A stretch of DNA of 64,000 nt, taken from positions 25,929-89,928 of the forward strand of contig NZBU01000009.1 in assembly GCA_002688035.1 (NCBI GenBank), written 5' to 3'. A program made the position numbers and the translations under genes. The notes under the pieces are model-generated. The model was not told the DNA's origin. It searched no databases and saw nothing but the letters and a program-made list of their open reading frames with translations. Positions 7,653 to 62,668 of this stretch are shown piece by piece; the stretch's first letter is position 1, and every line of letters starts with the position of its first letter. Origin of the DNA: Candidatus Iainarchaeum sp. Its GTDB lineage: Archaea; Iainarchaeota; Iainarchaeia; Iainarchaeales; GCA-2688035.

Positions 7653-7684
7653 TATATCATCACTCCCAAATCATTTTTTTTGAT

Positions 7685-7705: not shown

Positions 7706-7770
7706 CAAATGTTTTACTACTGTAAAATAGTATTTTATGCTTATAAAACTTTCGCCCTTATGTATAAAAC

Positions 7771-8091: not shown

Positions 8092-8134
8092 GGCTACAAC
8101 AATTAAAATAACAACTAGCCATAATCTGCTTGGG

Positions 8135-11348: not shown

Positions 11349-11379
11349 ACAACAAACACGTTCTTCTTTTTGAAGTAAC

Positions 11380-15310: not shown

Positions 15311-16964
15311 CCTTTTTGTTTTCTTCAGTGCTGTTTTCCTCTAGCTCCTCAACCTCTTCGGCTTCATCAAGTCTCAATTTCTCAAGAACCATTGTTTCAA
15401 GTTTTTTCTGCAGCAACTTTTTGTCAGTTCCTGTTAACTCGTTCAAGGCCATAACTATTTCAGGAATGTATTTGTAGAACAATTCTCTCTTAAGCTGCTT
15501 CTCGCGCTCCTTTCTCTTACCACTAATATAGCGCCCTGCTTTCCTGCCGGACTGCATCAAAGCAAGTCTGATTTCCTCAATAACTTCGTCTTCATCAGCT
15601 ATAGCTTGTTTGCCGGCTCCAGTGTAGGGAATGTGCACTGAAACAAAATTGACAAGGACAGTAAGAGGCGCTTTGTCAACATCTTTTATGTCATAGCGCT
15701 TCCAGTCAATGCTGTGCACAGACTTTGTGATTGCACAGTTTCCCGCGTCAAATAAAAGTGGTGCGCGATTCGCAAACCTCATAATTTCAAGTCTTTTCTC
15801 CATTCCCTCTGCACCCGAAACAGTTCTGCCTGCTTTTCCGCCATAAGCTATTGCTATCTCAACTTGAAAAGGAAATCCTCCAGCATAAACCTGTGGCCTT
15901 CTTGTAAGAACTGTTAAAAATTCTGGATCAACAATACTTTGTAAGCTCTTTCCAACTTGCGCCTCGCCAATTGGCCTTAGTGCATCTCCGCCAGGTGAGA
16001 TAAAATCAACTTCTTTGAATGCGTTAATTAACTGCTCTGCCTCATCCCAGCCCAGTTGCCTAGGGTCTTTATTGAGGTCAAATTGGACTTTTTTACCTAT
16101 TGACTCAACACTTTTTTGACCCATCCTATCAAAATCTTTTTTCAGGAAGCTGATAACTTTTCTTGAATCAGTATATTTTGCAAGTGTAACAATTTCATCA
16201 ACAGTAACTCCTTTTGGATGGGGCTTCACAACTTTTGGTCTTTCAGGAACTTTGTTCAGTGTTCGTTTAAAAGTAATCTTTTGTCCGGCAGGATCCCTAA
16301 AACTTATTTGGGCATGTGGGTTTGCAATAGCAGTTCTACGCAAATACTCCAAGGCCCCCTGCTCACTATCCCTGTACAGGACTCCCTTAAACTTGGCTTG
16401 AACAGCCAATCCTCTAAAATTCTTTGTCAAATCTTTCTTGTTTGCAATCTTTGGCTCATTCCTCTTTGGATCAATGCTCAGTTGCAGTGAGATAGTCTTG
16501 CCGTCTCCTGTCCCGGTAATAACCTTTATTGGTTTCCCTGTAGTCATTTGACTAAGCATTGTACAGCCACTTGACCCAATTCCCTGCTGTCCTCTGCTCT
16601 GCATCATTCTGTGGAACTTTGTTCCGGCCAAAAGTTTTCCAAGGGCCTTTCCAACTGTTTCCTCTGTTAACCCTGGTCCATTGTCTTTGATCGTAATCTC
16701 GTAATACTCTGAACCAAGTTCGTCAATCTTAACATCGATGTCAGGGAGAATGTTTGCTTCCTCGCAGGCATCCAAAGAATTTGTTACATATTCGTGAATA
16801 ACCGTTGTAAGTGTTCTAACTTTTCCATAAAGCCCTAGCATCTGCTTGTTCTTTTTGAAGAACTCTGCAACACTGTGCTCTTTGAACTCTTTGGATAGCT
16901 CTTCAGCGTCAACTATTTTTCCCGCCAGCTTATCCTCAAGTTTTCCGTCAGCCATTTTTTTCAC
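15264..16964 (-). CDS. top6B: DNA topoisomerase VI subunit B
   Basis: This is a GHKL ATPase (NGPGL, GQQGIGSSG). Its length and its pairing with top6A support the call. Confidence 0.85.
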   Translation of the reverse strand: MKKMADGKLEDKLAGKIVDAEELSKEFKEHSVAEFFKKNKQMLGLYGKVRTLTTVIHEYVTNSLDACEEANILPDIDVKIDELGSEYYEITIKDNGPGLTEETVGKALGKLLAGTKFHRMMQSRGQQGIGSSGCTMLSQMTTGKPIKVITGTGDGKTISLQLSIDPKRNEPKIANKKDLTKNFRGLAVQAKFKGVLYRDSEQGALEYLRRTAIANPHAQISFRDPAGQKITFKRTLNKVPERPKVVKPHPKGVTVDEIVTLAKYTDSRKVISFLKKDFDRMGQKSVESIGKKVQFDLNKDPRQLGWDEAEQLINAFKEVDFISPGGDALRPIGEAQVGKSLQSIVDPEFLTVLTRRPQVYAGGFPFQVEIAIAYGGKAGRTVSGAEGMEKRLEIMRFANRAPLLFDAGNCAITKSVHSIDWKRYDIKDVDKAPLTVLVNFVSVHIPYTGAGKQAIADEDEVIEEIRLALMQSGRKAGRYISGKRKEREKQLKRELFYKYIPEIVMALNELTGTDKKLLQKKLETMVLEKLRLDEAEEVEELEENSTEENKKGEDDEGKDKKAKGKK

Positions 16965-24288: not shown

Positions 24289-26496
24289 TTAGCTTCTGTG
24301 AGTTGGCTTTAGGAAGCCGTGCCTTGGCTTATAAATTTCACCTTTCTTCTCAAGCTTGTCAATTATATCGCGGGCTTTATCCTCATCAATGCCCTCGGTC
24401 TTTGCTTCCTCAAGAACTTCCTGTAAAGGCACCATATCTACATCGGCAGCCTTACTCTTTACAATCCCTAGGATCTTCTTCATGTTTGTTATCTGTGTGT
24501 GAGTCTGCCCTGTGGCAATAATATCATAATCAATCTTTCCTGTCTCAGGGTCAGTAACCATATCTTTCAATGATGACCTAACAAGTCTAATTGCACGCGC
24601 CGCATCCTGTGGTTCAACCACATCACTTAGTCTTACTCGCGCCGAAGCCTCACTTAATCGCACGAGTCCTTCCAACTGCCTATGTGTTGCGGCATAACTT
24701 CCTTCATCCCTACCCATGTCCCTGAGTTCCAAGTAAAAGTCGTTTATCGCCTGTGTTGCTTCCATGCTTAGTATAGGGGAAACAGTTTGTCTTGCATATG
24801 AAATATATTTCCTAAGCATATCGGCATCAATTTCAGGGGTTGCAATTTTCTTTAGGGCCTCTTCCTCAGTCTTCTTCATTTTCTTTCCCTTTTTGGAGTA
24901 TTGGGAAATCATTTCCCCTAGTCTATGTGTTTTCAAAATGTGTGAAGAAATCTGCTCATCCTTTGTCCTGTCAAGAACATCTCTAATCATATAAAATAAG
25001 TCAAAGCGACTGATAAGTGTTGGAGGCAATTCTATTTGGGATATGAAAGGAGTGTATGGGTCAAAGCGCGAGAACTTCGGGTTTGCAGCAGCAAGAATAC
25101 TTGTGTCAGACTTGAACCTTGTAACAATTCCGGCTTTTGCAACAGAGACCATTCCCTGCTCCATTGCCTCGTGCAATGCAACTCTATCATCATTGTTCAT
25201 TTTATCTAACTCATCAGCCATACACAGTCCGCCGCTCGCCAAAACTAGTGCACCGGCCTTTAATGTCCAGCCGCCCTCGCCAAAATCGTCTTTGACTGCA
25301 GCCGCAGTCAAACCAACACCACTCGTTGTCCTGCCTGCGGTGTAAATGCTCTTCGGGGCAATACTGTTTGTTGCCTGCAAAATCTGTGATTTACCTGTTC
25401 CAGGATCACCGACAAGTAGAATGTGAACATTTCCTCTGATAGTCTGGTTTCCAGGCAGTTCCTTTTTTACTCCGCCAAACAATTGTAGTACAATGCTTTC
25501 TTTCACAGACTCATGCCCATAAATTGCAGGGGCAATGCTCCCAATAAGCATCTCATAAATCTTTGGGTCTTTGGACAGTTTTCTGATTTCTTTCTCTTCC
25601 TCAGGGAGGACCTCTACTTCCTCAAACTCGCGCTGGGTCTCCTCAACATGTAAGACCTCCAAAAACCTGCCGAAAACAATTTTCTTTCCCTGGGCTGGTG
25701 ACAACCTCAGTATTCCAACAAACCTCACAGTGTTTCCCGCGCTCACCTTGTGCACAAGATCGTCGCCCAAATAAACGTCAAGGTTTGAAGCCTGCTCATT
25801 ACCCTTAAGTTTTTCCAATGGCTCTTGGATTTTTATTTTTTGGTAATCAACAAATTCTGATTGGTTCTGAACAAGAGTAAAATCGCGGTGTCTGCACTCG
25901 CAGAAAGCCGGCTGCTTGAGCTCTTGTCCTTCCTGCGGCGTCTTGTAAGTATTTCCACAGCGTCTGCATTGCCATGTCGCAATTTTTAGTTTTGGAAGTG
26001 CATCAGTTATCTGACTTACCGCGCCCTCAACAGAAATTAGTTTGTTTAAATATTCTGAACCAATGTTTCTAACAAGAATCTCTCGATCCTTTGGAATGTT
26101 GTGGAAGCGAATGTGTGGTGCAAAGCTCTCAATTTCTAGAGCAGGGACTTCAACACTCTGTATTGCGGTTCGTGCAGCCTCAAGCAAATAGTCAGGGTTG
26201 TCAAGCAGCTCATCAGCCAATTCATAGTCAAACTCTTCCAATTCCTTGAAATCAATTTCAAGACTTCTCTTCTTAGGATACTCTGATACGCTACGCTCAA
26301 TGCGTGGTTTGCCAACGCTTTCAAAGAAGGCAAGGAACTTGGCCACATAAGGGTTTTCCTGGGGCTCGCGTTCCCTTTCAATACTTTTTTCATCCTGTTC
26401 CAACTTAACACCACTAATAATTGCCGTTTTACTGTTTAAAACTGCTTTCGAGAGACAGCGGATTTCCACTGTTCTATGCCCTTGTGCAATTTCCAC
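24289..26496 (-). CDS. mcm: minichromosome maintenance helicase MCM
   Basis: There is a zinc finger CRRCGNTYK..CECR, the Walker A GDPGTGKSQ, an arginine finger and a C-terminal wH. The protein is 735 aa. It starts with an alternative GTG start. Confidence 0.9.
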   Translation of the reverse strand: MEIAQGHRTVEIRCLSKAVLNSKTAIISGVKLEQDEKSIEREREPQENPYVAKFLAFFESVGKPRIERSVSEYPKKRSLEIDFKELEEFDYELADELLDNPDYLLEAARTAIQSVEVPALEIESFAPHIRFHNIPKDREILVRNIGSEYLNKLISVEGAVSQITDALPKLKIATWQCRRCGNTYKTPQEGQELKQPAFCECRHRDFTLVQNQSEFVDYQKIKIQEPLEKLKGNEQASNLDVYLGDDLVHKVSAGNTVRFVGILRLSPAQGKKIVFGRFLEVLHVEETQREFEEVEVLPEEEKEIRKLSKDPKIYEMLIGSIAPAIYGHESVKESIVLQLFGGVKKELPGNQTIRGNVHILLVGDPGTGKSQILQATNSIAPKSIYTAGRTTSGVGLTAAAVKDDFGEGGWTLKAGALVLASGGLCMADELDKMNNDDRVALHEAMEQGMVSVAKAGIVTRFKSDTSILAAANPKFSRFDPYTPFISQIELPPTLISRFDLFYMIRDVLDRTKDEQISSHILKTHRLGEMISQYSKKGKKMKKTEEEALKKIATPEIDADMLRKYISYARQTVSPILSMEATQAINDFYLELRDMGRDEGSYAATHRQLEGLVRLSEASARVRLSDVVEPQDAARAIRLVRSSLKDMVTDPETGKIDYDIIATGQTHTQITNMKKILGIVKSKAADVDMVPLQEVLEEAKTEGIDEDKARDIIDKLEKKGEIYKPRHGFLKPTHRS

Positions 26497-32612: not shown

Positions 32613-33251
32613 TTATTTAATTGTTTTGCACTGCATTTTGCCCAATGCATTCTTTGCAAGTGCCTCAATATCAAGCTCTTTTCCCTCAAAACCAATTTTT
32701 TCCTCTGTGGCCTTGGTAGCGGGCTTAACAGGAATAGAGCAGCAAGCGCTTGGCAAAATGCTTGTCTCAAACGTTCCAAATTTTCTTGCGAGCTTCTCTA
32801 TCTCCAGCTTGTCCATTCCAAGCAGCGGCTTTATTATTGGTAGGTCTGCAGCAGAGTGCTCTGCATTAAGGTTGTAGAGAGTCTGCGAGGCAACTTGCCC
32901 AAGGCTTTCTCCAGTGAGTAGGGCAGAAGCCTTCTCTTTCTCAGCAAGCTTTGATGCAATGTGCATCATCATTCGCCTGCATAGCACACAACTGTATTTT
33001 CTGTTAGCTTTTTTTGCAATCTCAAAGAGAGTTGGACCATGAGGTACAACGCAAACCTTGATTTCTTTTCCAAACTTTTTGCCGAGCAGTTTTGCAAGCT
33101 TCTCTGTCTTCTCAATGCCACGCGTGTTTCCAAGTGGTTTTGTGTCAAAGTGAAGCATCACAATATCCAATCCATTCTCAAGAGCCATGCTGCTAACAAC
33201 AGCACTATCAATTCCACCCGATACTAGTGCGATAATCTTAGTCATTTTCAA
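32613..33251 (-). CDS. ThiI-like PP-loop ATP pyrophosphatase domain protein (no THUMP domain)
   Basis: The PP-loop SGGIDSAV and the ThiI motif LTGESLGQVASQTL are present, with a CxxC near the C-terminus. The protein is 212 aa. Confidence 0.65.
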   Translation of the reverse strand: MKMTKIIALVSGGIDSAVVSSMALENGLDIVMLHFDTKPLGNTRGIEKTEKLAKLLGKKFGKEIKVCVVPHGPTLFEIAKKANRKYSCVLCRRMMMHIASKLAEKEKASALLTGESLGQVASQTLYNLNAEHSAADLPIIKPLLGMDKLEIEKLARKFGTFETSILPSACCSIPVKPATKATEEKIGFEGKELDIEALAKNALGKMQCKTIK

Positions 33252-33993
33252 TCACCTTTTCAACAATCCTCTTTGCAAGTTCAACAGTTCTCCCTTCCAC
33301 ATCCTTCAAAGGGTTTACTTCAACCAAATCAATTCCCCTAGCCTTCCCGCTTTTAAGCAAGGCATCCAACAGGGGCATGAATTCCTCTTCCAACAAGCCG
33401 TTTGGCACCAAGTAACCTGTGCCTGGAGCAATGCTTGGGTCAAATCCATCTATGTCAATGCTCACATATATTTCATCATTCAATGCAATTAGTTCCAGCA
33501 GCTTATCCATTACCTGCACCGGCTTTGACTTAACTTCAACTGCGCTCACGACTTTTATCTTGTTGTGCTTTATGTACTCTGTTTCAAGGGGGTCCACTTT
33601 CCTAATCCCGATTTGCAAAATGTTCTCTCCCTTAACTAACTTTTCTTCCACCACTCCCTGGATCCAGTCCTCATGGCTCAGTGGAGCGAAGAACTGCACG
33701 CAGTCAGGATGAGCATCAAAAACCACAAGCGCCTTTTTGCCATCTGTAGTTTCAGAGAATCCTTTCACAAGTGCATAACTTATTGAGTGGTCCCCTCCAA
33801 CAAATAATGCCTTCTCTTTTGCCAAAACTTCTTTGGCTTTTGCATAAATGGCTTTATCTGTGTCCTCAATATTGCTTGGCACGATTGGAGTTTCATCAAA
33901 CTCTCTGCCCTCCAAAATGAGCGGGGGGGCTTTTCCACAACCCTTGTTTTGGTCCAAGTTTCCCTGTTCACTCGGAACACTTAGTATTCTCAT
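33238..33993 (-). CDS. speB: agmatinase / ureohydrolase family
   Basis: GGDHSISY, DAHPD and SIDIDGFDP are the arginase-fold Mn-binding motifs. It is adjacent to aIF5A, a conserved linkage through the hypusine pathway. Confidence 0.75.
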   Translation of the reverse strand: MRILSVPSEQGNLDQNKGCGKAPPLILEGREFDETPIVPSNIEDTDKAIYAKAKEVLAKEKALFVGGDHSISYALVKGFSETTDGKKALVVFDAHPDCVQFFAPLSHEDWIQGVVEEKLVKGENILQIGIRKVDPLETEYIKHNKIKVVSAVEVKSKPVQVMDKLLELIALNDEIYVSIDIDGFDPSIAPGTGYLVPNGLLEEEFMPLLDALLKSGKARGIDLVEVNPLKDVEGRTVELAKRIVEKVIEND

Positions 33994-34431: not shown

Positions 34432-34636
34432 AAAGCACCTTTTCTAACAAACTTACAAAACTAGAGCGAATTTAATTAAAAAGGTTTCTGTGGCAGTCCC
34501 TGCGTCATTGATAGATTTTAATACATTTCCCCATTTCCTTATATTTATCATTAACTATTGTGTGCGCGATGGCGCGGTGTTTCTCTTGGTACTGGATAAA
34601 GTCAGAAAGCGAATCGATTCTGTAGTAAATAAGAGA

Positions 34637-35053
34637 ATGGAGAAGAATATTGCTGTTTTTGTTGATGGCCCAAACATCCTGAGGAAGGAACTGGGCATTG
34701 ATTTGGAGGAAGTAAAAAGTGTTCTCCAAAAGAACGGGAACATTAAGATCGCAAAGGTCTTTTTGAACCAGTTTGCATCCAACAAACTTGTGGAAGCTGT
34801 TGTAAATCAGGGCTTTGAAGCAATAATTACTGTTGGGGATATTGACGTTGCAATGGCGGTTGAAGCAACAGAGTCCTGCTTCAACAAATCAATTCAGGCA
34901 ATAGCCTTTGTAACCAGGGACTCGGATTTTTTGCCGGTAATTGTTCGGGCAAAGAGTCGGGGAAAAGAAACAATCGTGGTTTTGGCTGAGGAGGCCAGTG
35001 CGGCAGCCTTAAAAAACACTGCCGACCAAATAATTATTGTTGGTGGGCGATAA
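34637..35053 (+). CDS. NYN/LabA-like (PIN-related) domain protein
   Basis: IAVFVDGPNI...AFVTRDSDFLPVI is the NYN pattern. Confidence 0.55.
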   Translation: MEKNIAVFVDGPNILRKELGIDLEEVKSVLQKNGNIKIAKVFLNQFASNKLVEAVVNQGFEAIITVGDIDVAMAVEATESCFNKSIQAIAFVTRDSDFLPVIVRAKSRGKETIVVLAEEASAAALKNTADQIIIVGGR

Positions 35054-35056
35054 AAA

Positions 35057-35551
35057 ATGAACATTCCTATCGGAACACTTGTCGAGGAAAACATTTCCCT
35101 AAAGGGAACAGATATCAAACAAAAAATTTCTACCCTGCTTGAACAGGGTTTTACAGGCTACCTTGTTCTAACAGTTGAGGGTAGAAGTGGGATTGAAGAA
35201 GGACTACTGCTTTTGAAAAATGGTTTGGCTGTTGGCGCAATTTACGAGTATGTGAAATTTGCCAAAAGTTTTTATGGGGATCATGCATTCGAACAACTGT
35301 TTAATTCTTCGCTTGCAGAGTTCGGCGTAATGGATATCGGTAGTTTAAGCAAACAGCAAGTTGAACTAATAATTGCGTTCAACGAGAAGATAGAATTCAA
35401 GAAAGCACTTGAGCCAAAGGAATTGGAGAAGCTTGTTCCAAAGAAATTTGACGCCGATGTGGCTGAAAAGGCGTTGGGAAAGAAATTTAAAAAGAAGGAA
35501 TCAAAATTTGATGTATTCAAAAAACTTGGATTAGGTGGAGTTAGTAAATGA
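35057..35551 (+). CDS. hypothetical protein, possibly Roadblock/LC7-like
   Basis: TGYLVLTVEGRSGIEEGLLLLKNGLAVGAIYEY resembles the Roadblock beta-hairpin. It is only weakly supported. The C-terminus is K-rich. Confidence 0.3.
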   Translation: MNIPIGTLVEENISLKGTDIKQKISTLLEQGFTGYLVLTVEGRSGIEEGLLLLKNGLAVGAIYEYVKFAKSFYGDHAFEQLFNSSLAEFGVMDIGSLSKQQVELIIAFNEKIEFKKALEPKELEKLVPKKFDADVAEKALGKKFKKKESKFDVFKKLGLGGVSK

Positions 35552-36009
35552 GAAAGAAAATTGGTTTCCTTATAAGGCGAATCGCTGGAAGCATACTTGA
35601 CATGGATGACACAACAGTTCCATATGAACAACTGGAAATCCTCAACGACTTCCTATCAAAGCACCAGTTTGATCTTAATCAGGCCGACTTAAATATTTTG
35701 ATGCGGGAGCTAAAACGTAAGCACATGGTTGACAGCATCAGCATTATTGACACTAACGGGGAACTTGTTATCAGCAGCGAGGGCAACGGCAAGAAAGAGG
35801 CAAGCCTTGCTTCATATTTGATGGGTTATATTGATAGTGAACTTGCAACCCCTGAAAGTGTTCTGATAAAGGGAAACAACAGTTGGTTCATGGTTTTCCC
35901 GTTCAATGACCAAACTTATATTATAAGAGCACAAGCCTCATTGTCTAACACAGAATTGAAGGCACTGGCTAGAGAACTTGAGTCATTCAAGGTGGGCAAC
36001 AGCGGATAA
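35548..36009 (+). CDS. Roadblock/LC7 (MglB-like) domain protein
   Basis: The segment MVDSISIIDTNGELVISSEG...ASLASYLMGYIDSEL...SWFMVFPFNDQTYIIRAQ has alpha-beta-beta-alpha-beta order and a residue pattern typical of Roadblock/LC7. Confidence 0.45.
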   Translation: MRKKIGFLIRRIAGSILDMDDTTVPYEQLEILNDFLSKHQFDLNQADLNILMRELKRKHMVDSISIIDTNGELVISSEGNGKKEASLASYLMGYIDSELATPESVLIKGNNSWFMVFPFNDQTYIIRAQASLSNTELKALARELESFKVGNSG

Positions 36010-36096
36010 AGTGCGCAGAAATACTTATTTTGCGACTTCTCTTATAAGAAAAGATTTTTAAGGAATACAATCTATTAAACCTATAACATTGGTGTT

Positions 36097-36927
36097 TTGA
36101 TGGTTAGAATTATTACTATTGCATCTGGAAAAGGTGGGGTCGGAAAAACCACTATTACCGCTAACTTAGGAATTGCCCTTGCGCAACAAGATTTGAGAGT
36201 ACTTGTAATTGATGCCGATATTGCAATGGCAAACTTAAGTCTGCTACTTGGAATGCAGTCTTCCCCCATTACTTTACATGATGTGCTTCTCGGGGAAAGC
36301 AATGTTCACGACGCAATTTATGATGGGCCCGGCGGAATACACTTTATTCCAAGCGGTCTAAGCATTGAAAGCTATCGTAGAGTTGATGCCGAGCGCCTTG
36401 AATCTCTTGTGAGGGAAATAGCGGAGAGCTATGACTTTGTTTTAATGGATGCTCCAGCCGGAATAGAGAAGAGCGTGATGGCCGCACTCTCTGCAGCCGA
36501 TGAAGTTCTACTTGTAACAATGCCAAATTCTCCAAGCGTTGCAGATGTCCTGAAAACAAAGATTGTGGCGCAGCGCATTGGGAGTCATCCTGTCGGAATT
36601 GTACTGAACTTTTTGCGTGGAGAAAAAGGCGAAATTAGTGACGATGATATTATGAAGATGCTTGAACTCCCAATCTATGGGATGATTCCATATGATTCCG
36701 AGATCAGGAAGAGTTTTATGCAGGAAAACGTTGCACCAGTAATGATTCGTGTTCCTAATAGCCCCGCATCCATTGCAATAAGAAAGATGGCGGCAAAACT
36801 CTCAGGGGTTAGTGTTGCCCCACAAATAACTAAGGTTAAAAAACCAGGATTCTTATCCAGACTTTTTGGCTTCTTCAGGAAAAAGAAGAAAGCCAGTGCA
36901 GAAGAAATAAAAAAGGAAACAGAATAA
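36097..36927 (+). CDS. minD: MinD/ParA-family deviant Walker-A ATPase
   Basis: The deviant Walker A GKGGVGKTT and the family motifs DAPAG and VVLN are present. Confidence 0.8.
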   Translation: MMVRIITIASGKGGVGKTTITANLGIALAQQDLRVLVIDADIAMANLSLLLGMQSSPITLHDVLLGESNVHDAIYDGPGGIHFIPSGLSIESYRRVDAERLESLVREIAESYDFVLMDAPAGIEKSVMAALSAADEVLLVTMPNSPSVADVLKTKIVAQRIGSHPVGIVLNFLRGEKGEISDDDIMKMLELPIYGMIPYDSEIRKSFMQENVAPVMIRVPNSPASIAIRKMAAKLSGVSVAPQITKVKKPGFLSRLFGFFRKKKKASAEEIKKETE

Positions 36928-51047: not shown

Positions 51048-52778
51048 TTACTGCCCTGTTAAGAACTTTACAAGAGCTTCCAGGATATTTGGTGCGGCAG
51101 ACTGTTCAGGGGCTTTCTCACCCACTATTTCCGCGGCCTTTATTATTCCCCTGATTGGTTCTGTTGGACAGTCTTTTGCCTCAAAACCATCAGTGCACAC
51201 CTTTACTTCACATCCATTTGCACTCTCATAGGTCTTACATTCTACTGTTGATTCCTCTGTTTCTTCTTCCGGACAATCTTTTATTTCATAGCCATCAGTG
51301 CACTCCTTTATCTTACACCCGGCGTCATTAGTGTACTCCTTACACTCTACATCTGTTTCTTCTTCCGGACAATCTTTTACACTGTAACCGTTTGTACACT
51401 CTTTTACTTTACAGCCGTCCTCGTTCTCATACACCTTACACTCAATATCTTCGGTGCTGTCAGGACAAACTTTCTCTTTATCTCCGTTTGTGCACTCCTT
51501 TATTTTGCATCCGTTTTCAGTCTCATACTCTTTGCACTCAACAATTTCTCCAGGACATCTAACAAGTTCCTCTCCGTTTGTGCATGACTTTACTTTACAT
51601 CCGTCATCTCTCTCGTAGACTTTACACTCTACATCTTCTGTAGGGCAATCTCTAGTTTCATAGCCATTACTGCACCTTTTCACAGTGCATCCCTGCTCGT
51701 CCCTAAACTTCTTGCATTCTACGACAGGACAGACGTTTTGTAGTTTGCATGAGTTGAAAGTGTAACCGTCTGTGCATGATATCACAATACAGTCCCCTTC
51801 AACATATTTTTTGCACTCCACAGTGTCTGTTGTGGGTGGCTCCGCACAATTCACTTGTCTACATCCCTTGCTATCAACATAGGTTTCGTATTCAAGCTTG
51901 CGGTTCCTGCATGCATCTATCTTTCTGTCGATTGTACGTTCGTCAGGACAAATTATACCTGTTTTGATACACTCTATTTGTGCACAACTTGTTCCATCAA
52001 CATACTTTTGGTAGTCCATGCCTTGTACCCTGCATTTGGAGATTTGTCTGCCAATTTCTTCATCACTTGGACAAATTCTTTCTCTGCAGCGCGCCTGCCT
52101 ACAGTTGGCAGAATCTACATAGAACTGGTAGTCGAGTCCGCGAGCCTTACACTTGCGGATCATTGATTCAAGTGCGTTTCCTGTTGGGCAAGACGTTGTT
52201 GACTCAATACACTTAACATATTCACAGCCGTCTTCCACATAGTAAAGCCAAGGGGCGAGACTGTACTCTCCGCCCTTTACCTCTTTGCATGCCGCAACTT
52301 TGGCATCATTTTCTTCTTCGGTAGGGCATGAGCTCACAGGCGGTTTCACACACTCGATTTGCCTACAGCCTGAATTATCTGTAAATGTTTCATAGCCATA
52401 GCCAGCCTCTTTACATCTTACAATTTCTTGTTCAAGTTTTTCGCTTGTAGGGCAGACAATTGGTTTTATGCAGTTCACATATTTACAACCGTTCTCTTCA
52501 ATGTATATTTTGTACTGCATGTCATCTAGTTTACAAGCTCTTATTTTGTTTTCAATCTCTGTTTCCGAGGCGCAGATACTATTACACATACCCTCATACG
52601 CTACTTTAACCCCAGCAACATCAGCAAAACAATCATTACTGTATGTTTTATCATTTACTCCACAGACAGGATCATACTGTGCTGTGCATATAGTGTCCTG
52701 AGTCTCTACTGTTTCAGCACTAGTGGCTGCTAGTAGTAATACAAAAAACACTGCACTAAATCCAATTCTCTTATTCAT
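51048..52778 (-). CDS. secreted cysteine-rich multi-repeat protein with an N-terminal Kazal-like domain
   Basis: A signal peptide is present. CTAQYDPVCGVNDKTYSNDCF...GMC fits the Kazal core, including PVCG and KTY-N-C. About 6 repeats of ~45 aa follow, then about 7 repeats of ~27 aa of the form ECKxYExxDGCKVKxCTNGxExKDCP. Confidence 0.6.
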   Translation of the reverse strand: MNKRIGFSAVFFVLLLAATSAETVETQDTICTAQYDPVCGVNDKTYSNDCFADVAGVKVAYEGMCNSICASETEIENKIRACKLDDMQYKIYIEENGCKYVNCIKPIVCPTSEKLEQEIVRCKEAGYGYETFTDNSGCRQIECVKPPVSSCPTEEENDAKVAACKEVKGGEYSLAPWLYYVEDGCEYVKCIESTTSCPTGNALESMIRKCKARGLDYQFYVDSANCRQARCRERICPSDEEIGRQISKCRVQGMDYQKYVDGTSCAQIECIKTGIICPDERTIDRKIDACRNRKLEYETYVDSKGCRQVNCAEPPTTDTVECKKYVEGDCIVISCTDGYTFNSCKLQNVCPVVECKKFRDEQGCTVKRCSNGYETRDCPTEDVECKVYERDDGCKVKSCTNGEELVRCPGEIVECKEYETENGCKIKECTNGDKEKVCPDSTEDIECKVYENEDGCKVKECTNGYSVKDCPEEETDVECKEYTNDAGCKIKECTDGYEIKDCPEEETEESTVECKTYESANGCEVKVCTDGFEAKDCPTEPIRGIIKAAEIVGEKAPEQSAAPNILEALVKFLTGQ

Positions 52779-55426: not shown

Positions 55427-55747
55427 ATGCATACAAATTCTGCCAAGCCAGAAGTTTTGCACAACTTGAATAGTTCTACCCTTTCTCAAAAAGAACAAGA
55501 TATATTTGCCCTTATCCTTGAATCCTGGCCAACATCTGCTGTGGAGATAGCGGAGCATTTTGGAGAAGATCTTTCTTCCAGAGAATCCAAAAAGAAAGCA
55601 AGCACCAAATACTCCTACTATTTGCAAAAGCTTGTTGAAAAACACCTTTTGATGAGCAAGCGTGTTGGCAACGCGCTAATTGTCTGGCCGGTTCGCGCGG
55701 AAAAACTTCGCACAATCCACAATATTCTTGAGAACGAGGTGCAATAA
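55427..55747 (+). CDS. wHTH regulator (same family as the N-termini of 61808 and 62665), operonic with a V4R protein
   Basis: QDIFALILESWPTSAVEIAEHFG...YYLQKLVEKHLL parallels LIIRVLSESWPLSVKEIY...VLNELVEEKIL. Confidence 0.5.
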   Translation: MHTNSAKPEVLHNLNSSTLSQKEQDIFALILESWPTSAVEIAEHFGEDLSSRESKKKASTKYSYYLQKLVEKHLLMSKRVGNALIVWPVRAEKLRTIHNILENEVQ

Positions 55748-56313
55748 TGCTTAACACTTTCTACGACAAATTCATTTTCACCAATGGCCTCAAATACAAG
55801 AACAACAACTTCTATCTCCTCAACATGCCCTTTGTTATTGCGCCAAGCGAACTCTTCATTGGCCTACTGGAAGTGGATGACGAGGACTTCAAGAGAAAAC
55901 TTTATTATGCTACAAAGGATTCTGTTAGAAAGCATTTGATAAAAGAATTTGACCTTGACTTTGGTTTTAAGGGAGCAAAGCTTGTCACTTTCCTCGAAAC
56001 CTATTTTGTTGCTAGTGGCTGGGGCAAAATCCAAACTGTAGATCTCAATATGGGTGGCAAAAAAGCCATTGTGAAAGTTAGGAATAATCCTTTCTCCTCA
56101 CACCTACACAAAAAAGTCTCCCGCCCCTGTGACCACTTCATTCGCGGAATTCTAGCAGGGGTATTCAGCCGTGTGTTTAATGCCAAGGTTGATTGTGTAG
56201 AAGTGCACTGCGCAGCTCTCGGAGAACAAGACTGCGAGTTCATAATAAAAAAACAAGGCGAATTCAACTTAGAGAACAAGCATGTGCGAAGGCAGCTCGA
56301 ATTGGATATTTAA
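55747..56313 (+). CDS. V4R-domain protein
   Basis: The C-terminus CDHFIRGILAGVFSRVFNAKVDCVEVHCAALGEQDCEFII fits the V4R Cys/Gly pattern. Its start overlaps the stop of the upstream gene (TAATG). Confidence 0.5.
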   Translation: MLNTFYDKFIFTNGLKYKNNNFYLLNMPFVIAPSELFIGLLEVDDEDFKRKLYYATKDSVRKHLIKEFDLDFGFKGAKLVTFLETYFVASGWGKIQTVDLNMGGKKAIVKVRNNPFSSHLHKKVSRPCDHFIRGILAGVFSRVFNAKVDCVEVHCAALGEQDCEFIIKKQGEFNLENKHVRRQLELDI

Positions 56314-57413
56314 GAAATCTTTTTCAGTACAATTTGAAGCATTCTGCGAACTGGTTCTGCAGCGCCCCACAACAGCTGGTCTCCTACTGTGAAGAGTGTA
56401 ACAAAGCTAGCATCATTGTTGATGTGGCGAATTCTTCCTACTGGGACTGTGAGTTTTCCGCTGACCGCAATCGGTGTGAGTTGCCTAATGCTATCTTCCT
56501 TGTTGTTTGGAATAACCTTAACCCATTCGTTTGCTTTAGCGATTGTATTTTCAATTTCTTTTAGTTCCATTTCCTCTTTGAGTTTAATGGTGATTGCCTG
56601 GCTATGGCAGCGCATGGCCGGAACTCTTACGCAGATTCCATCTACTGGAATTTGCTGTTTTGAATTCAGTATTTTGTTTGTTTCAGCGCTTCCCTTCCAT
56701 TCCTCTCGGCTTTGTCCGTCCTCTACTTCCTTGTCAATCCATGGAATGAGGTTGCAGGCTAGTGGAACTGTAAAATTTTCTGTTGGAAAATCTGGATTTT
56801 CAATTGTTTCTTGAACTTCACGGTCTAGCTCGAGCACAGGCATTTTCTTTCCCTCGGTTGCTTTGGAGATTGTCTGCATTTGCTCCACCAGTTCAGCCAT
56901 GTTCTTGCTTCCTGCTCCTGAGGCTGACTGGTAGGTCATTGAAGTAAGCCAGTCCACCTTATTTTCTTTAAACAAACCGCCAATTCCCATTAGCATCAAA
57001 CTAACTGTACAGTTTGCTCCAATATAATTTTTCACACCTGATTCAAACGCCTCGTCTATCACTTCTCGGTTAACTGGATCCAAAACAATTACACTGTCTT
57101 TTTCCATTCGCAGGGCTGAAGCCGCATCAATCCAGTAACCATCCCATCCTTCCTTCCTTAGCTTTGGATAAACTTCTTTTGTATAGTCTCCGCCTTGGCA
57201 GGTTACAATTGCATCCAGTGAGGAAAGGGTTTTGATATCAAAAGCATCGGCAAGTTCTGGCACTTCCATGCCAATTTCTGGGCCTTTTTGGCCTACTTGT
57301 GAAGTTGAAAAAAACAATGGTTTCAATCCCTGGAAGTCGTTTTCTTCCAGCATTCTTTGCCTTAGCACTGATCCAACCATTCCTCTCCATCCGACAAAGC
57401 CAACTTTTACCAT
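56310..57413 (-). CDS. asd: aspartate-semialdehyde dehydrogenase, bacterial (gammaproteobacterial) type
   Basis: The protein is collinear with E. coli Asd and by eye roughly 60% identical to it as recalled. Shared blocks are MVKVGFVGWRGMVGSVL, IVTCQGGDYT, GANCTVSLMLM, GQSREEWKG-AETNKILN, RCHSQA-TIKLK and FTVGDQLLWGAAEP-RRML. Confidence 0.85.
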   Translation of the reverse strand: MVKVGFVGWRGMVGSVLRQRMLEENDFQGLKPLFFSTSQVGQKGPEIGMEVPELADAFDIKTLSSLDAIVTCQGGDYTKEVYPKLRKEGWDGYWIDAASALRMEKDSVIVLDPVNREVIDEAFESGVKNYIGANCTVSLMLMGIGGLFKENKVDWLTSMTYQSASGAGSKNMAELVEQMQTISKATEGKKMPVLELDREVQETIENPDFPTENFTVPLACNLIPWIDKEVEDGQSREEWKGSAETNKILNSKQQIPVDGICVRVPAMRCHSQAITIKLKEEMELKEIENTIAKANEWVKVIPNNKEDSIRQLTPIAVSGKLTVPVGRIRHINNDASFVTLFTVGDQLLWGAAEPVRRMLQIVLKKIS

Positions 57414-57494
57414 ATAATCAATCTCCTTTTTTTGCTTGAAATAACCTGCGTACGAAAAATTTTAAAAATAGATTTAACGAGTGCGAGATTCGAA

Positions 57495-58145
57495 CTAGGT
57501 TAATTCCCAAATGCTTTCCCCGAATAGTCTTCCCTTGTCTTCCCAGAAAGGTCTCTCGTCTGCGTGAATCCTTTTCAATTCTCTGCCAAGGCCCTTTGCA
57601 GCGTTCTCAATAGTCCTCTTGTAATAGCTGGTTATTTCAGGACTCATTCCCCGTCCTGCTTGCAAATGCAATGCCCTATAATATTCGGGGTGAACAGCAA
57701 ATAGTCTGATTCCATTTCTCCTACAGTATTCCATTGCAGTCATTGCTGTTGCAACATTTCCTTGATAATAAAACCTTTTTTCTTTCGAAGTCAAATCCGC
57801 TTTTTTCAAGTTTGCTGTCGGCTGGACAACAGTTAACATCGCCTGTTTGTTTGGAAAAAGCCAAATCGCAGTATGAGTTACGCTGCCTTTTCTCGCCCAG
57901 GCTTCTGTTCGTACTTTCGCAATTTTTGAAACATGCTCAGGCAATGCATTCAGGTGAAAAACAAGCTCTCTGCCCTCCCTGGGTTTCTCGCCCCTAAAAT
58001 TCCCAAAATAACCACTGCCCTTTCTCGAAACAACAAGTCTTCCAGCCGGAGCCCTTGCCTTCTCGCCAAACACTCTTTTGAACGCAGCATTAACGCCCCG
58101 CACATTTATTTGGGCATATTTCGCACCAGCAACTCTTTTTCGCAT
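57495..58145 (-). CDS. hypothetical conserved-looking basic protein of unknown function
   Basis: The protein is 216 aa, R/K-rich and non-repetitive. No family could be assigned by eye. Confidence 0.3.
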   Translation of the reverse strand: MRKRVAGAKYAQINVRGVNAAFKRVFGEKARAPAGRLVVSRKGSGYFGNFRGEKPREGRELVFHLNALPEHVSKIAKVRTEAWARKGSVTHTAIWLFPNKQAMLTVVQPTANLKKADLTSKEKRFYYQGNVATAMTAMEYCRRNGIRLFAVHPEYYRALHLQAGRGMSPEITSYYKRTIENAAKGLGRELKRIHADERPFWEDKGRLFGESIWELT

Positions 58146-58420: not shown

Positions 58421-59179
58421 ATGGTTCGCACTAAGACTGGTATCCAGGGCCTTGACAAAGCTCTTATGGGTGGAATCCCTGAGGGTAACATTGTTTTACT
58501 TAGTGGTGGAGCCGGAACAGGTAAGTCAACTCTTGCAATGCAGTTCTTGATGAACGGCGCTTCTCTTTTTGGCGAGCGCGGTCTCTATATTAGTACTGAA
58601 CAAGACCGCGATGAACTAATGAAAGCAGCCAACAATTTCGGCTGGAAGCTTGATGACCTCGAGAGCAAGAATCTCGTCAAAATCGCTTACTTTGACATTA
58701 CTGAGGGAAATGACTTCCTCAACAGGGTCGATACCCTTGTCCAGAACTTTAAACCAAAGCGAATAGTAATTGACAGCATGACAACTCTCACAGATTCCCT
58801 GATGATTTCCGGCATAGGCAAAAAAGATGCCTTTTCCATGGTTCAAATACAGGAAACAGTTTCCCCTATTCCCCGAACCGAAAAGGTTGTCGCAAAAAGC
58901 ATCCTCTACAATCTCATCAAAAAACTGAAGCACTACAAGGTTACAACACTTCTTACGAGTGAACTTCCCGAGGAACACAAAGCACTGAGTGCAGATGGGA
59001 TAAGCGAGTTTATTACAGATGGTGTGATTGTATTACACTATTTGGGGATAGGGTCGGCTAATTTTAGAAACCTTCAAATTAGAAAAATGAGATATAGTAG
59101 TCATGAGAAAGATATAATTTCATATTCAATTGCCTCTAAGGGGATTGAAATCCAAGCGGAGGAGAGCTTGGAAATCTAA
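58421..59179 (+). CDS. KaiC/RadA-like single-domain RecA-superfamily ATPase
   Basis: GIQGLDKALMGGIPEGNIVLLSGGAGTGKSTLAMQF contains the Walker A, and Walker B is IVIDSMT. The start was taken at the internal ATG 58421 rather than the track start 58214. Confidence 0.65.
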   Translation: MVRTKTGIQGLDKALMGGIPEGNIVLLSGGAGTGKSTLAMQFLMNGASLFGERGLYISTEQDRDELMKAANNFGWKLDDLESKNLVKIAYFDITEGNDFLNRVDTLVQNFKPKRIVIDSMTTLTDSLMISGIGKKDAFSMVQIQETVSPIPRTEKVVAKSILYNLIKKLKHYKVTTLLTSELPEEHKALSADGISEFITDGVIVLHYLGIGSANFRNLQIRKMRYSSHEKDIISYSIASKGIEIQAEESLEI

Positions 59180-59181
59180 TC

Positions 59182-59769
59182 TTGGGGGAAAGAATGTACA
59201 AGACTTTTGCCAATCTAATACTTCATAACCAGGTTTCTTTTGAAAAGGGTAAAATGAGTCTCTTGGGGCAACCTATTGCTATACTGCCTATCGAAGAGTA
59301 CTACTATATGCAGAGAATCTTGGAGAAAAAGGGGTTAGAGAATATTATTTATTATAGTGCGAAAGAGTCTGGCATTTTGTGGTTAGATAATATGATTCCT
59401 AAATTTAAAATGAAATTAAATGATGTAGTTAAATGGGGTATTGAAATCCTGTCCATTTCAGGGTGGGGAAATCTTAAATTGAAGTTAATCGATAAAACAA
59501 ATAATAAGATGATTTTTAACTTGAGCGAGGCAACAATTGCTAAGAAATACGGTACTCATTCTTCCTCTGTTGACCATTTGCTTAGAGGATATGTTGCAGC
59601 GGCGGGAACAAAGTTTCTAGGTATTGATGTGGATGCAATTGAGCATAAATGTGTGGCAAAAGGAGATTCTTATTGCCAATATATAATTAAACCGAAAAAA
59701 GACTTCGATCAGTCCAGCCCCATTGTCAAAATCCAATTAAAAAAAGATTTTGATACCGCTATTTATTAG
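59182..59769 (+). CDS. V4R-domain protein (second copy), operonic with the KaiC-like ATPase
   Basis: The C-terminus HLLRGYVAAAGTKFLGIDVDAIEHKCVAKGDSYCQYII shows the same V4R pattern as 55747..56313. It lies 3 bp after the kaiC-like stop. Confidence 0.5.
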   Translation: MGERMYKTFANLILHNQVSFEKGKMSLLGQPIAILPIEEYYYMQRILEKKGLENIIYYSAKESGILWLDNMIPKFKMKLNDVVKWGIEILSISGWGNLKLKLIDKTNNKMIFNLSEATIAKKYGTHSSSVDHLLRGYVAAAGTKFLGIDVDAIEHKCVAKGDSYCQYIIKPKKDFDQSSPIVKIQLKKDFDTAIY

Positions 59770-60603
59770 CCAAGGTAGCACATAAATCATCTCAATAGCT
59801 AGAAGAGATATCATCGCTTTTGTAACTATGCTTCCTTGAGTGATGACTTCTTTATCTTCGATTTTTTGGTTTTTCAATAGTAAAGGGATAGAAAGGGAGA
59901 CTATAGTTGGAACTAAGTAAATCTGCTCTATAAAACCAAAAAGAATTAATATCAATGTTATAATTAATAGTCCCTCCATGGCCACAATTATTGACCTAAA
60001 AGTGTTGGTTTTCCCAAAAGTATTTGCCCAACTTCGAATATTAAATTTCTTTTCTATCTCACTATCCTCAAACTCTTTTGTTGTAGCAATTATGCCTGTT
60101 AATATAGTAAATAAGATGAAGATTTCGAGAGGGAAGAGTCTTTTGTTAATTGTCCAGGCAGCAATAAAGGGAATCACTGAATAAAATATGGCGCCAAAGA
60201 GATTGGTCGAAAACAAATATTTCCTAAAATAAAAATAGGGGTGGGTGTATAACAAAGAACAAACTATAAAAAATATAATTAACCCGGCTAGATATATACT
60301 GTAGTTTAAAGCGATAAAAATTGAAATAACATAAAAAAATAAGGATGCAAATAAAACTGTATTTGGAGATATCTCTTGTTGCGGCAAAGGTCTATCTGGT
60401 TTACTAAGCTTGTCAATTGCCAAGTCAAAAAACATGTTCAATGAATTAAATCCCATTATTGAAAGCGACAAGGTAATTAGGGGAATTAGTAATGGGCCAA
60501 AATCGACGATTCCTTGATTGAGTAAGAGGTAAAACAAAATCATGTTAATTAAATTTAAAATAACAAATTCAGGACCAATTAGTGCCATCCACTTTTTTAT
60601 CAT
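59737..60603 (-). CDS. UbiA-family prenyltransferase, likely digeranylgeranylglyceryl-phosphate synthase
   Basis: It has 8 to 9 TM helices and the Asp-rich motif NSLNMFFDLAIDKLSKPDRP. It is adjacent to geranylgeranyl reductase. Confidence 0.65.
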   Translation of the reverse strand: MIKKWMALIGPEFVILNLINMILFYLLLNQGIVDFGPLLIPLITLSLSIMGFNSLNMFFDLAIDKLSKPDRPLPQQEISPNTVLFASLFFYVISIFIALNYSIYLAGLIIFFIVCSLLYTHPYFYFRKYLFSTNLFGAIFYSVIPFIAAWTINKRLFPLEIFILFTILTGIIATTKEFEDSEIEKKFNIRSWANTFGKTNTFRSIIVAMEGLLIITLILILFGFIEQIYLVPTIVSLSIPLLLKNQKIEDKEVITQGSIVTKAMISLLAIEMIYVLPWLINSGIKIFF

Positions 60604-60608
60604 AAGGC

Positions 60609-61703
60609 TTACCTCAAATTTGTTACAATATTTCTAAATAAATCATTTATCAATCCTTTTCCTTCTATTTCTCGTCCATCAAGTTTTTTGAATATCCTAT
60701 CAAAGTCCGCATTTCTAGCAGTATCTAACATTTTCCTTATCTTCCTTTGACTTTCATATTCTTCACCTAATATGTTGTCCCATTCAACTTCATATTTTCG
60801 CATAGAAAATAGTTTTCCTTGCATATTTTCTTGAATTACTTTACTAGCCATTTCTGCTTCATCAATGCATTTGTGTATTGACCCTCCTAACATAGGTTCG
60901 CCTCCTGCAGCATCACCTATCACAATCCAATTCTTATTAGCTTTTTTGTCAATCATGCCGGTGGGAATAAAGCCACCATTAACTCGAATTATTTTTTTAT
61001 TTTTATACTTTTTTAAAATAGAAAGCGAGTAAAGACGTCTTCTAATTTCGCGATGGTCTCGAATATTCAATTCCTCTGCTCCAAAACCTAATTCTATTAT
61101 CTCGTCTCCTAAGGGAATTATCCACCCGTAAAAACCAGGGGCTAGTTCATTGTCTAGAATGGTGGTTATTTCATCTTTTGCTTTTATTTCAACCGCATAA
61201 CAAAAAACATTCTTAGGATGCGATATGCGCAATTTGTTCCTAAATTTTACTCCCAAAACGCCTGTAGCAAATATTAATACCTTAAATCCAATATCTTGGC
61301 CATTAGATAGTTTTACTGTGTGTTGTTCTAGATCAAAGTCTACCACATTCTGTTTTAATTTAATTTTGTTCTTTTCTTTTATTGAGTTGTAAAGATGCAT
61401 TTCTATTTCTCTAAGATTTACAACATATCCTCTCGTACTCTTGTCACTTTTTGAGATTATTAACCCCCCTGGGGAATAGAAGTTGATTTTTCGTATCGCT
61501 TTTATTAGGTTTTCTTTAGGTAAGGATAATTTTTCCAGGGTTTCTAAATTTATTATCCTGGGGCCATAGGTGCCAACTTCCATCCTTTTTTCTAGTGTAA
61601 CAAAATCTATTCCTTCCTTTTCAAGTGATCTAGACAAAGAAAGACCCGCGATTCCTGCGCCAATAATCACTACGTCGTGTTTTTTCATGCTATAATAAAA
61701 CAT
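60609..61703 (-). CDS. geranylgeranyl reductase family FAD-dependent oxidoreductase
   Basis: The N-terminal FAD motif HDVVIIGAGIAGLS is present. Length and the UbiA neighbor are typical of archaeal lipid saturation genes. Confidence 0.7.
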   Translation of the reverse strand: MFYYSMKKHDVVIIGAGIAGLSLSRSLEKEGIDFVTLEKRMEVGTYGPRIINLETLEKLSLPKENLIKAIRKINFYSPGGLIISKSDKSTRGYVVNLREIEMHLYNSIKEKNKIKLKQNVVDFDLEQHTVKLSNGQDIGFKVLIFATGVLGVKFRNKLRISHPKNVFCYAVEIKAKDEITTILDNELAPGFYGWIIPLGDEIIELGFGAEELNIRDHREIRRRLYSLSILKKYKNKKIIRVNGGFIPTGMIDKKANKNWIVIGDAAGGEPMLGGSIHKCIDEAEMASKVIQENMQGKLFSMRKYEVEWDNILGEEYESQRKIRKMLDTARNADFDRIFKKLDGREIEGKGLINDLFRNIVTNLR

Positions 61704-61807
61704 TAGCCTGATTTAAATAACTTTACTTGTTTCTTTTCTAACCCGAACAGACTAAATCAACCTTTTAGTTGATTTTTTAACCTTTTCTTTTCTATTAAAT
61801 ATATTAG

Positions 61808-62668
61808 ATGACTATTACTGTTCCAGAGTTGGGTGCGGGGAAGAAAGACTCTACCAAAGACCTAATTATTAGAGTCCTTAGTGAGTCGTGGCCTTTATCT
61901 GTAAAAGAGATTTATGTGCGAATAAGTCAGCATGGGAAAAATATTTCATATCAGGCTGTTCATAAAGTGTTAAACGAATTAGTTGAAGAAAAAATTTTGT
62001 CTCACTCTGGGAAAACTTTTCAGTTGAATTCTGAGTGGGTGAGGTCTTCGAAGAGTTTTTTTCACAATTTGGAAAAAAAGCTCTCTGGGAAAGCTTTGGA
62101 GGATCTAAAATATCTAAAGCCCCGGGAGTCCATTATTTTTAACTTCAATAATCTAACTAATTTTGCTCTTTTTATTGCACAAGCTTATGCTGATAAGGTT
62201 ATGATTACCGATGGGGACACAAAGGCAATAGGTATCTTCCATCATTTATTTTGGACGCCTCGCTTTAGATTTGAAGATATTTTGTTATCGAGGAAAGTAA
62301 TTGATAGCAGTCTTAGTGGGTATGTGTTAAGTGGGGGGAATTCTCCTTTTGATCAATGGGTAAAGAAACAATATTTGGCAGCAGGCTTTAATGGAGTAAA
62401 GCTTGGGGTAGATTTATCTGATTTTGAAGATGATCTATTTGTTCATGGGGACTTTGTTGCCCAAGTACACATTAGTGAAGAAGATAGAAAAAAGATTAAA
62501 GAATTGTATAATTCAGTTGGAACCGTATTAGACTTGTTCAAACTTTATATTACCAAGTTCGGAAAACCTGATACCATCAGAATCAAAGCAACGTTTTCTC
62601 GAAATCCAGTAATGGCTAAAATGGTGAGAAATCATGTTCTAAAGTTTTTTGAGGAGGATGTGAAATGA
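61808..62668 (+). CDS. wHTH plus uncharacterised ~200-aa C-terminal domain protein (paralog A)
   Basis: The N-terminal wHTH is LIIRVLSESWPLSVKEIYVRISQHGKNISYQAVHKVLNEL. It is homologous end to end with 62665..63492. Confidence 0.5.
   Translation: MTITVPELGAGKKDSTKDLIIRVLSESWPLSVKEIYVRISQHGKNISYQAVHKVLNELVEEKILSHSGKTFQLNSEWVRSSKSFFHNLEKKLSGKALEDLKYLKPRESIIFNFNNLTNFALFIAQAYADKVMITDGDTKAIGIFHHLFWTPRFRFEDILLSRKVIDSSLSGYVLSGGNSPFDQWVKKQYLAAGFNGVKLGVDLSDFEDDLFVHGDFVAQVHISEEDRKKIKELYNSVGTVLDLFKLYITKFGKPDTIRIKATFSRNPVMAKMVRNHVLKFFEEDVK

Follow-up and report, generated by a model that had tools for sequence, protein, structure and literature searches.

A bacterial-type aspartate-semialdehyde dehydrogenase gene of probable horizontal origin in Candidatus Iainarchaeum

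Introduction

Aspartate-semialdehyde dehydrogenases (ASADHs) combine an N-terminal NAD(P)-binding domain (PF01118) with a C-terminal dimerisation/catalytic domain (PF02774). The long class comprises ~367-371 aa and is contiguous through residues ~175-230, where shorter types differ, while archaea normally use an enzyme of the TIGR00978 type. Here, we describe asd, a gene for an ASADH of the long, Escherichia coli type in a 64,000-nucleotide stretch of Candidatus Iainarchaeum sp. (GenBank assembly GCA_002688035.1, contig NZBU01000009.1, forward-strand positions 25,929 to 89,928), hereafter referred to as the window. A preliminary description, prepared from the sequence alone, had suggested that this gene was acquired from bacteria, and the analyses below indicate that it probably was.

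Bacterial genes have been reported repeatedly in DPANN archaea. Examples of bacterial origin given in PMC8407392 are transketolase/transaldolase, ArgG/ArgH, SpeB and RelA/SpoT, and bacterial protein families in DPANN are treated in PMC8204110. In the passages of both papers that were searched, there is no mention of Asd, and no mention of a bacterial-type Asd in Iainarchaeota was found in the literature searched.

Results

An E. coli-type enzyme

The asd product is already named aspartate-semialdehyde dehydrogenase in NCBI and UniProt, and its type was assigned with the NCBIfam models. It scored 556.3 bits against the equivalog model TIGR01745 (asd_gamma, cutoff 402.9) and 593 bits against the subfamily model PRK06598 (cutoff 198). 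Scores remained below cutoff for the Gram-positive-type model TIGR01296 (asd_B, 162.4 bits, cutoff 324.2) and for the archaeal/eukaryotic-type model TIGR00978 (asd_EA, 82.7 bits in two partial stretches, cutoff 301.2), and the protein is a member of neither. In Pfam, PF01118 covered residues 3-122 and PF02774 residues 146-349.

HMMER alignment to E. coli Asd (PDB 1brm) gave 487 bits and a single aligned stretch (2-360) with 205 of 359 residues identical (57.1%) and one 4-residue gap, as expected in length and gaps for an enzyme of the long class. Identity to 5bnt was 61.3%. The best 17 matches among solved structures were all long E. coli-class ASADH chains (367-380 aa, 410-511 bits). Chains 2ep5 and 1ys4, which we take to be archaeal-type ASADH structures, matched in the C-terminal half only (40 and 25 bits, respectively), and the shorter-type structures 2yv3 and 2qz9 aligned in two stretches, chiefly in the C-terminal part. 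The preliminary description had estimated an identity of roughly 60% to E. coli Asd by eye, which is borne out by the real alignment at 57%, and the three segments that it quoted as shared are indeed present in the asd product and common with E. coli Asd. Its claim of a gapless full-length alignment holds in that the alignment is nearly gapless, although not strictly so. By every sequence-level feature tested, the asd product belongs to the family of E. coli-type ASADHs.

Placement among bacterial sequences

Besides the protein itself (100%), a word-indexed search of 5.8 billion proteins identified three metagenomic relatives, P0002, P0003 and P0004, that are 76%, 72% and 70% identical to the asd product. 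These were followed by a plateau at 63-67% identity, in which all named members are bacterial (Desulfobacterales, Desulfosalsimonadaceae, Desulfomonilia, Thermodesulfobacteriota, Spirochaetota, Brevinematia, Fibrobacterota, Pelomicrobium and Azospira). The most distant bacteria were Enterobacterales (52-57%). The label "gammaproteobacterial-type" in the preliminary description is therefore appropriate as a family name but not as a statement about the donor, as the nearest bacteria belong to Desulfobacterales, Spirochaetota, Brevinematia and Fibrobacterota.

Neighbor-joining (NJ) trees were calculated from Kimura-corrected distances with bootstrap resampling. Among 149 gamma-type sequences, the window protein and P0002-P0004 formed a clade in 99% of 200 replicates, with its sister unresolved; the nominal sister, P0010, is bacterial, as its gene adjoins genes for FtsE, FtsX and an M23 peptidase. 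To root the tree, divergent full-length representatives (33-45% identical) that still belong to the PRK06598 subfamily were taken from an exhaustive search of 1.84 billion proteins; the best 150 in that search contained PRK06598-subfamily members only. In the rooted tree, the archaeal clade had 100% bootstrap support and lay many nodes inside the bacterial sequences, with single backbone nodes being weak, and a clan of all core bacteria excluding the archaeal clade was recovered in 0 of 100 replicates. Within the limits of NJ, a weak backbone and a within-subfamily root, the archaeal sequence thus falls within the bacterial radiation, and neither the NJ trees nor the TIGR00978 score place it inside an archaeal-type clade.

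Quartets pairing the window protein with a candidate relative against E. coli and an outgroup were recovered in 82-87% of 100 replicates when the candidate was Desulfobacterales- or Spirochaetota-like, and in 95-98% when Photorhabdus replaced E. coli. For Pseudomonas-type, Geobacter-type or betaproteobacterial candidates, support was 5-18% (100 replicates, E. coli quartet). On these sequence comparisons, an anaerobic Desulfobacterota/Spirochaetota-like bacterium is a more probable donor than a gammaproteobacterium.

Scanning GTDB genomes and JGI metagenomes for patterns based on exact 8-mers supplied named bacterial sequences for the tree and revealed no further archaeal carrier; bacterial matches were haphazard, and the genome of the window was itself absent among the GTDB matches. 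One candidate for a third archaeal carrier (L036/L028, 62% identity, window-like GC content) was rejected, as its neighbors (IclR regulator, class I FBPase, BrkB and AI-2E transporter) look bacterial. Separately, a tblastn match in Rosenbergiella sp. YN46 (L021, 10001-11117) spans the whole query at 51% identity, and its in-frame extension stops after 86 codons. This copy could be frameshifted or pseudogenised, or reflect a sequencing error, and it was left out of the trees.

Taken together, we consider it likely, with a probability of roughly 0.85, that asd entered archaea by horizontal transfer from a bacterium, that it encodes a functional NADPH-dependent enzyme of the E. coli/Haemophilus structural class, that the donor was likely an anaerobic Desulfobacterota/Spirochaetota-like bacterium, and that the transfer is old. 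This agrees with the horizontal acquisition proposed in the preliminary description, given the nesting of the protein among bacterial sequences and the wide margin by which it fails TIGR00978. In this scenario, a bacterium would have passed asd to archaea, after which its base composition, codon usage and gene packing would have become fully host-like.

Several points weigh against this reading. The trees are distance-based, most of their deep nodes have bootstrap values below 50%, and their root consists of divergent members of the same subfamily, neither asd_B nor asd_EA. The contigs of P0002 and P0004 are no more than 1.2 and 2 kb long (GC ~0.40), with a SET-domain gene as the only neighbor. 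No aspartokinase, homoserine dehydrogenase, DapA or DapB was found among the annotated genes of the 64-kb window and the 10 kb beyond its 3' end; lysC, dapA and hom were among the genes that the preliminary description had proposed to look for. Moreover, across 556 DPANN genomes a complete pathway from aspartate to lysine/homoserine occurs only in ~72% of Altiarchaeota, according to PMC8407392.

Predicted activity

Residues R10, R102, N134, C135, Q162, E241, R267, H274 and Q350 (E. coli numbering, used throughout) are all kept in the asd product. The catalytic and substrate residues are also kept in P0002, P0003 and P0004, as are two N-terminal NADP-site motifs, GWRGMVG and FFSTSQ, and Gln350, and the Lys of the EEWKG motif is present in the asd product. 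From the E. coli and Haemophilus influenzae structures, we take Cys135 to be the thioester nucleophile, His274 the acid/base and Arg267/Glu241 the residues that bind the substrate carboxylate and amino groups; Arg102, Asn134 and Gln162 are presumably substrate/phosphate ligands. Of 140 columns with a conservation of 95% or more among 145 bacterial sequences, the window protein agrees with the bacterial consensus at 135, which argues for continued purifying selection for the ancestral activity. G265P and G334D are identical in all four clade members, and R173 is replaced in all four (by A, N, N and K), at positions that are at least 96% conserved in bacteria. Two further changes, G133A and A169S, are found in the window protein only and affect positions that hardly vary in bacteria.

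Judged by this conservation, the most likely function of asd is the canonical NADPH-dependent reductive dephosphorylation of beta-aspartyl phosphate to L-aspartate semialdehyde. A thioester at Cys135 would carry the reduction, with His274 acting as acid/base and Arg267 and Glu241 holding the substrate. In the host, the semialdehyde may be used for lysine/diaminopimelate, for threonine/methionine or in the archaeal aromatic amino acid route that depends on aspartate semialdehyde. No enzyme of this aromatic route was found among the annotated genes of the window and the adjoining 10 kb. Iainarchaeota have been described as having an unusually large set of anabolic genes for a DPANN group (PMC10936187, PMC6349945). 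A link to the agmatinase-like gene at 33238-33993, via a carboxyspermidine route to polyamines, was considered and rejected: 23 kb separate this gene from asd, and a carboxyspermidine dehydrogenase was not seen.

Archaeal Asd paralogues have been recruited as malonyl-CoA reductase, and the asd product could likewise have been recruited to another reaction in a host possibly lacking the rest of the aspartate pathway. The missing aspartokinase and downstream enzymes within ~74 kb and the restriction of the complete pathway to Altiarchaeota within the DPANN survey (PMC8407392) would fit such a recruitment, as would the three clade-wide changes, of which G265P lies two residues from the substrate-binding Arg. 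We nevertheless regard it as improbable. The protein exceeds the TIGR01745 equivalog cutoff by ~150 bits, and it keeps its nucleophile and acid/base, the residues that bind the carboxylate and amino groups of the substrate, the NADP-site motif and 135 of the 140 positions that are near-invariant in bacteria. In addition, the ~74 kb covered are only a small part of the genome, as Diapherotrites genomes average ~1.2 Mb (PMC8407392).

A second archaeal carrier and empty sites

The P0003 contigs differ from the window in GC content (0.49 vs 0.41). A phosphoglycerate kinase (PGK) gene lies 1.7 kb from the P0003 asd; among solved structures, its product matched best to 2cun (319 bits), which we take to be the Pyrococcus horikoshii PGK, followed by 1vpe (243 bits). 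All named relatives of this PGK are archaeal, with a Candidatus Altiarchaeota archaeon at 70% identity and Bathyarchaeia, Thermofilum and Methanobacteriaceae at 44-49%. By these sequences, the P0003 host is a second, distant archaeal lineage that is Altiarchaeota-like.

At locus L003, asd occupies an insert of ~1.4 kb between the convergent 3' ends of unk203 and Sm_multidrug_ex. At L043, the counterparts of these two genes abut without asd; its PGK is 78% identical to that of L003 and its flanking proteins are 53-81% identical. The L044/L045 loci, with a PGK 65% identical to that of L003, also lack asd. The gene order AIRS-like, Sm_multidrug_ex or VCA0040-like, unknown gene, AsnC and PGK is kept in L043 and L044/L045, and tblastn with either archaeal Asd gave no match in the L043, L044 and L045 loci. 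Presence and absence of asd at a syntenic site were thus observed for the site of clade-mate P0003. With relatedness gauged roughly by PGK identity, a single gain or relocation after the split of L003 and L043 is a more parsimonious explanation than two losses. Like the window gene, the L003 asd is ameliorated to its own host (GC3, the GC content at third codon positions, is 0.58 vs 0.57-0.74 for its neighbors).

The window archaeon is far from the L003-type lineages: candidate counterparts are 23-55% identical (e.g., ParA/MinD-like 46%, NYN 55%). Its asd site, between a V4R gene and a group consisting of an orphan, a KaiC-like and a second V4R gene, is also unrelated to the P0003 site. The shared changes G265P, G334D and at R173 favor a single entry into archaea over several, although an unsampled bacterial donor may already have carried them. 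After entry, asd would have spread from one archaeon to another, or else undergone repeated loss or relocation, as it occurs in a second lineage, at a different site, and is absent from the closest sampled relatives; on these sequence patterns, asd looks patchy or mobile among archaea. A more specific version, which we regard as possible yet rather doubtful, is that an asd cassette entered archaea once and then moved between Iainarchaeota-like and Altiarchaeota-like small-genome lineages, using neutral intergenic sites and supplying aspartate semialdehyde where the archaeal-type enzyme is lacking. Such a cassette would possibly act as a stand-alone step feeding a partial pathway or one shared between host and symbiont.

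These observations also bear on vertical inheritance, according to which gamma-type Asd would be ancestral in the archaeal group of the host and shared with bacteria by descent, or donated to them. Full amelioration of asd and its presence in two distant archaeal lineages are compatible with such an origin, but the archaeal clade, with four known members, is nested within a bacterial set of thousands, close relatives of the P0003 carrier have no asd at the syntenic site, and the position of asd in one archaeal carrier is unrelated to that in the other. The protein also fails TIGR00978, the type that archaea normally use. Vertical inheritance is accordingly highly improbable, and acquisition from a bacterium remains the preferred reading.

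Two further observations were made on these contigs. On the Altiarchaeota-like contig of a clade-mate asd (L001, Ga0247841_10002414), a gene for a 2163-aa RHS/YD-repeat TcdB-like toxin protein lies 1.7 kb downstream of asd and is followed by two small open reading frames (ORFs) and an IS200/IS605 transposase gene, forming a polymorphic-toxin-like locus (4080-12118) that is unusual for an archaeon. The window (34490-36927) and L044 (12967-15205) share the order NYN nuclease, DUF2226, small ORF and ParA/MinD-like ATPase at 29-55% identity, which looks like a conserved archaeal four-gene module in this sequence comparison.

Archaeal host and integrity of the locus

The window encodes numerous archaeal markers, including topoisomerase VI subunits B (15264-16964) and A (14162-15310), MCM (24289-26496), Mre11, RIO1, a KH/Pno1-like protein, L10e, L15e, proteasome alpha, SBDS, exosome Rrp4 and one RNase PH subunit. 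Within 10 kb of asd lie genes for a second RNase PH subunit, L37ae, an RpoP-like protein, Pcc1 and prefoldin beta. The exosome is represented by Rrp4/41/42, and archaeal-type genes are found on both sides of asd within 2-10 kb. The archaeal context noted in the preliminary description is thereby well supported. Exact-sequence matches for Asd (MAG22286.1), MetRS (MAG22244.1) and inositol-3-phosphate synthase (MAG22226.1) are assigned to Candidatus Diapherotrites archaeon or Candidatus Iainarchaeum sp. and carry Tara Oceans identifiers. Records place this Asd protein on at least three contigs, of which the largest has 230,702 bp; one of them, an independently assembled 107-kb ENA contig, has the same gene order as the window on both sides of asd.

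The composition of asd is that of its host, as the preliminary description had also judged: GC content is 0.432 and GC3 0.394, compared to window means of 0.413 and 0.397 (GC3 z = -0.06, 57 window genes), and the log-likelihood of its synonymous codons under the usage of the other genes gave z = +0.44 (same 57 genes). Compositional anomaly and mobile-element scars, expected only for a recent transfer, were not found for asd, which fits an old transfer and does not speak against transfer as such, and its host-like GC3 and codon usage indicate that the transfer was not recent. Contamination or a chimeric join at asd is very unlikely, given the recurring locus, archaeal flanks, host-like composition and overlap of its stop codon with that of the convergent neighbor. 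An assembly or binning artefact, i.e., a bacterial fragment wrongly joined into an archaeal contig, hardly comes into question: bacterial-type genes are a classic contamination signal in metagenome-assembled genomes and the nearest named relatives of the asd product are bacterial, but the observations just listed all speak against it, and with the nearest bacterial protein being only 67% identical, there is no contaminating donor genome in the data.

Genes around asd

The features at the asd locus are listed in Table 1. Between asd and the upstream orphan, an A/T-rich TATA-like element (TATTTTTAAAA, 57460-57470) lies ~50 nt ahead of the asd ATG and a Shine-Dalgarno-like GGAG (57423-57426) 9 nt ahead of it, which suggests that asd has its own putative archaeal-style promoter and ribosome-binding site. 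A scan for sigma-70 promoters and terminators found no more of them than chance would give, in line with an archaeal host. The stop codons of asd and the convergent V4R188 gene overlap by 4 bp (56310-56313), and this tight arrangement argues for a long residence of asd and against an assembly join at this position. No flanking tRNA or insertion sequence element was found around asd, and direct or inverted repeats there were only short chance matches.

Table 1 Features at the asd locus (window coordinates)
Feature	Position	Strand	Basis or remark
asd, bacterial gamma-type aspartate-semialdehyde dehydrogenase, 367 aa, ATG start	56310..57413	-	ORF and TIGR01745; NCBI MAG22286.1
Upstream intergenic region, 81 nt	57414..57494	-	Read from sequence
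V4R-domain protein (V4R188), 188 aa	55747..56313	+	PF02830, 48.9 bits; convergent with asd
Orphan ORF, 216 aa, Arg/Lys-rich, directly upstream of asd	57495..58145	-	No Pfam match
V4R-domain protein (V4R195)	59182-59769		Pfam V4R

As in the preliminary description, asd is flanked by a pair of V4R genes and a 216-aa orphan. The only match to the orphan among the 5.8 billion proteins was a 129-aa self-fragment, recovered at Tara Oceans station 37 (mesopelagic, 0.1-0.22 um fraction). This match hints at where the window was probably sampled and at a very small cell. Its codon usage is host-like (z = -0.33). Co-transfer of the orphan with asd was considered and rejected, as it has no homologue apart from this self-fragment and shows no homology to the gene located upstream of the P0003 asd.

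The two V4R paralogues that bracket the segment of asd and the orphan are 24% identical (E = 6e-16), and each follows a partner gene: a 106-aa ORF in the case of V4R188 (pair at 55427-56313) and a KaiC-like ATPase in the case of V4R195 (pair at 58421-59769). Such pairs may represent a recurring two-gene sensor/ATPase module. Near asd, a low-GC patch (59182-62668; GC 0.31-0.36 vs a window mean of 0.41) contains V4R195, a UbiA-family prenyltransferase, a geranylgeranyl-reductase-like flavoprotein and a 286-aa ORF. These lipid-pathway neighbors deviate more in composition than asd itself does, the GC3 z value being -2.9 in the reductase and -1.8 in UbiA.

Elsewhere in the window, the minus strand at 51048-52778 encodes a predicted secreted, very cysteine-rich protein of 576 aa, with a Kazal-like N-terminus (CTAQYDPVCGVNDKTYSNDCFA) that is followed by many ~30-aa "ECK.Y....GC.VK.CTNG" modules; it had no Pfam match, and none is recorded in public annotation. 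A free-standing LAGLIDADG-like ORF (5760-6545, plus strand; weak match to PF14528) lies between the genes for a CDP-alcohol phosphatidyltransferase and inositol-3-phosphate synthase.

Discussion

Asd joins the bacterial acquisitions of DPANN archaea as a core amino-acid-pathway enzyme of bacterial type that is fixed in a DPANN genome. It extends the set of bacterial genes behind the anabolism of Iainarchaeota, for which a free-living lifestyle has been proposed more often than for any other DPANN lineage. Also new are the small archaeal clade of a bacterial enzyme and the site-level presence and absence in a second lineage. A 72%-identical copy in a distant archaeon, at a site that is empty in relatives, suggests gene flow among small-genome archaea, and the case bears on the gain, and not only the loss, of metabolic capacity in such archaea. 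It reveals no new enzyme, mechanism or unexpected principle.

Of the known ASADHs, the gamma type (TIGR01745/PRK06598; 1brm and 1gl3 from E. coli, 1nwc, 1mb4 and 5bnt) is the one that the asd product resembles in length class, two-domain structure and an identity of 57-61% from end to end; the region that lengthens this class aligns continuously, and the active-site and cofactor residues that were checked are kept. The window protein differs from this type by its archaeal host, by a 4-residue deletion relative to E. coli residues ~182-185, and by the substitutions at R173, G265P and G334D (clade) and G133A and A169S (window only). The archaeal/fungal type (TIGR00978), the form expected in an archaeal genome, shares with it the reaction and the superfamily (PF01118/PF02774), but the asd product is clearly distinct from it (82.7 bits vs a cutoff of 301; 25-40 bits vs 1ys4/2ep5).

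That DPANN archaea take up bacterial genes is well established, and asd fits this familiar pattern. Like the cases in the literature, it is a bacterial-type metabolic or housekeeping enzyme embedded in a DPANN genome with a patchy spread, and to these documented cases asd adds the presence and absence of the gene at a defined site in a second archaeal lineage.

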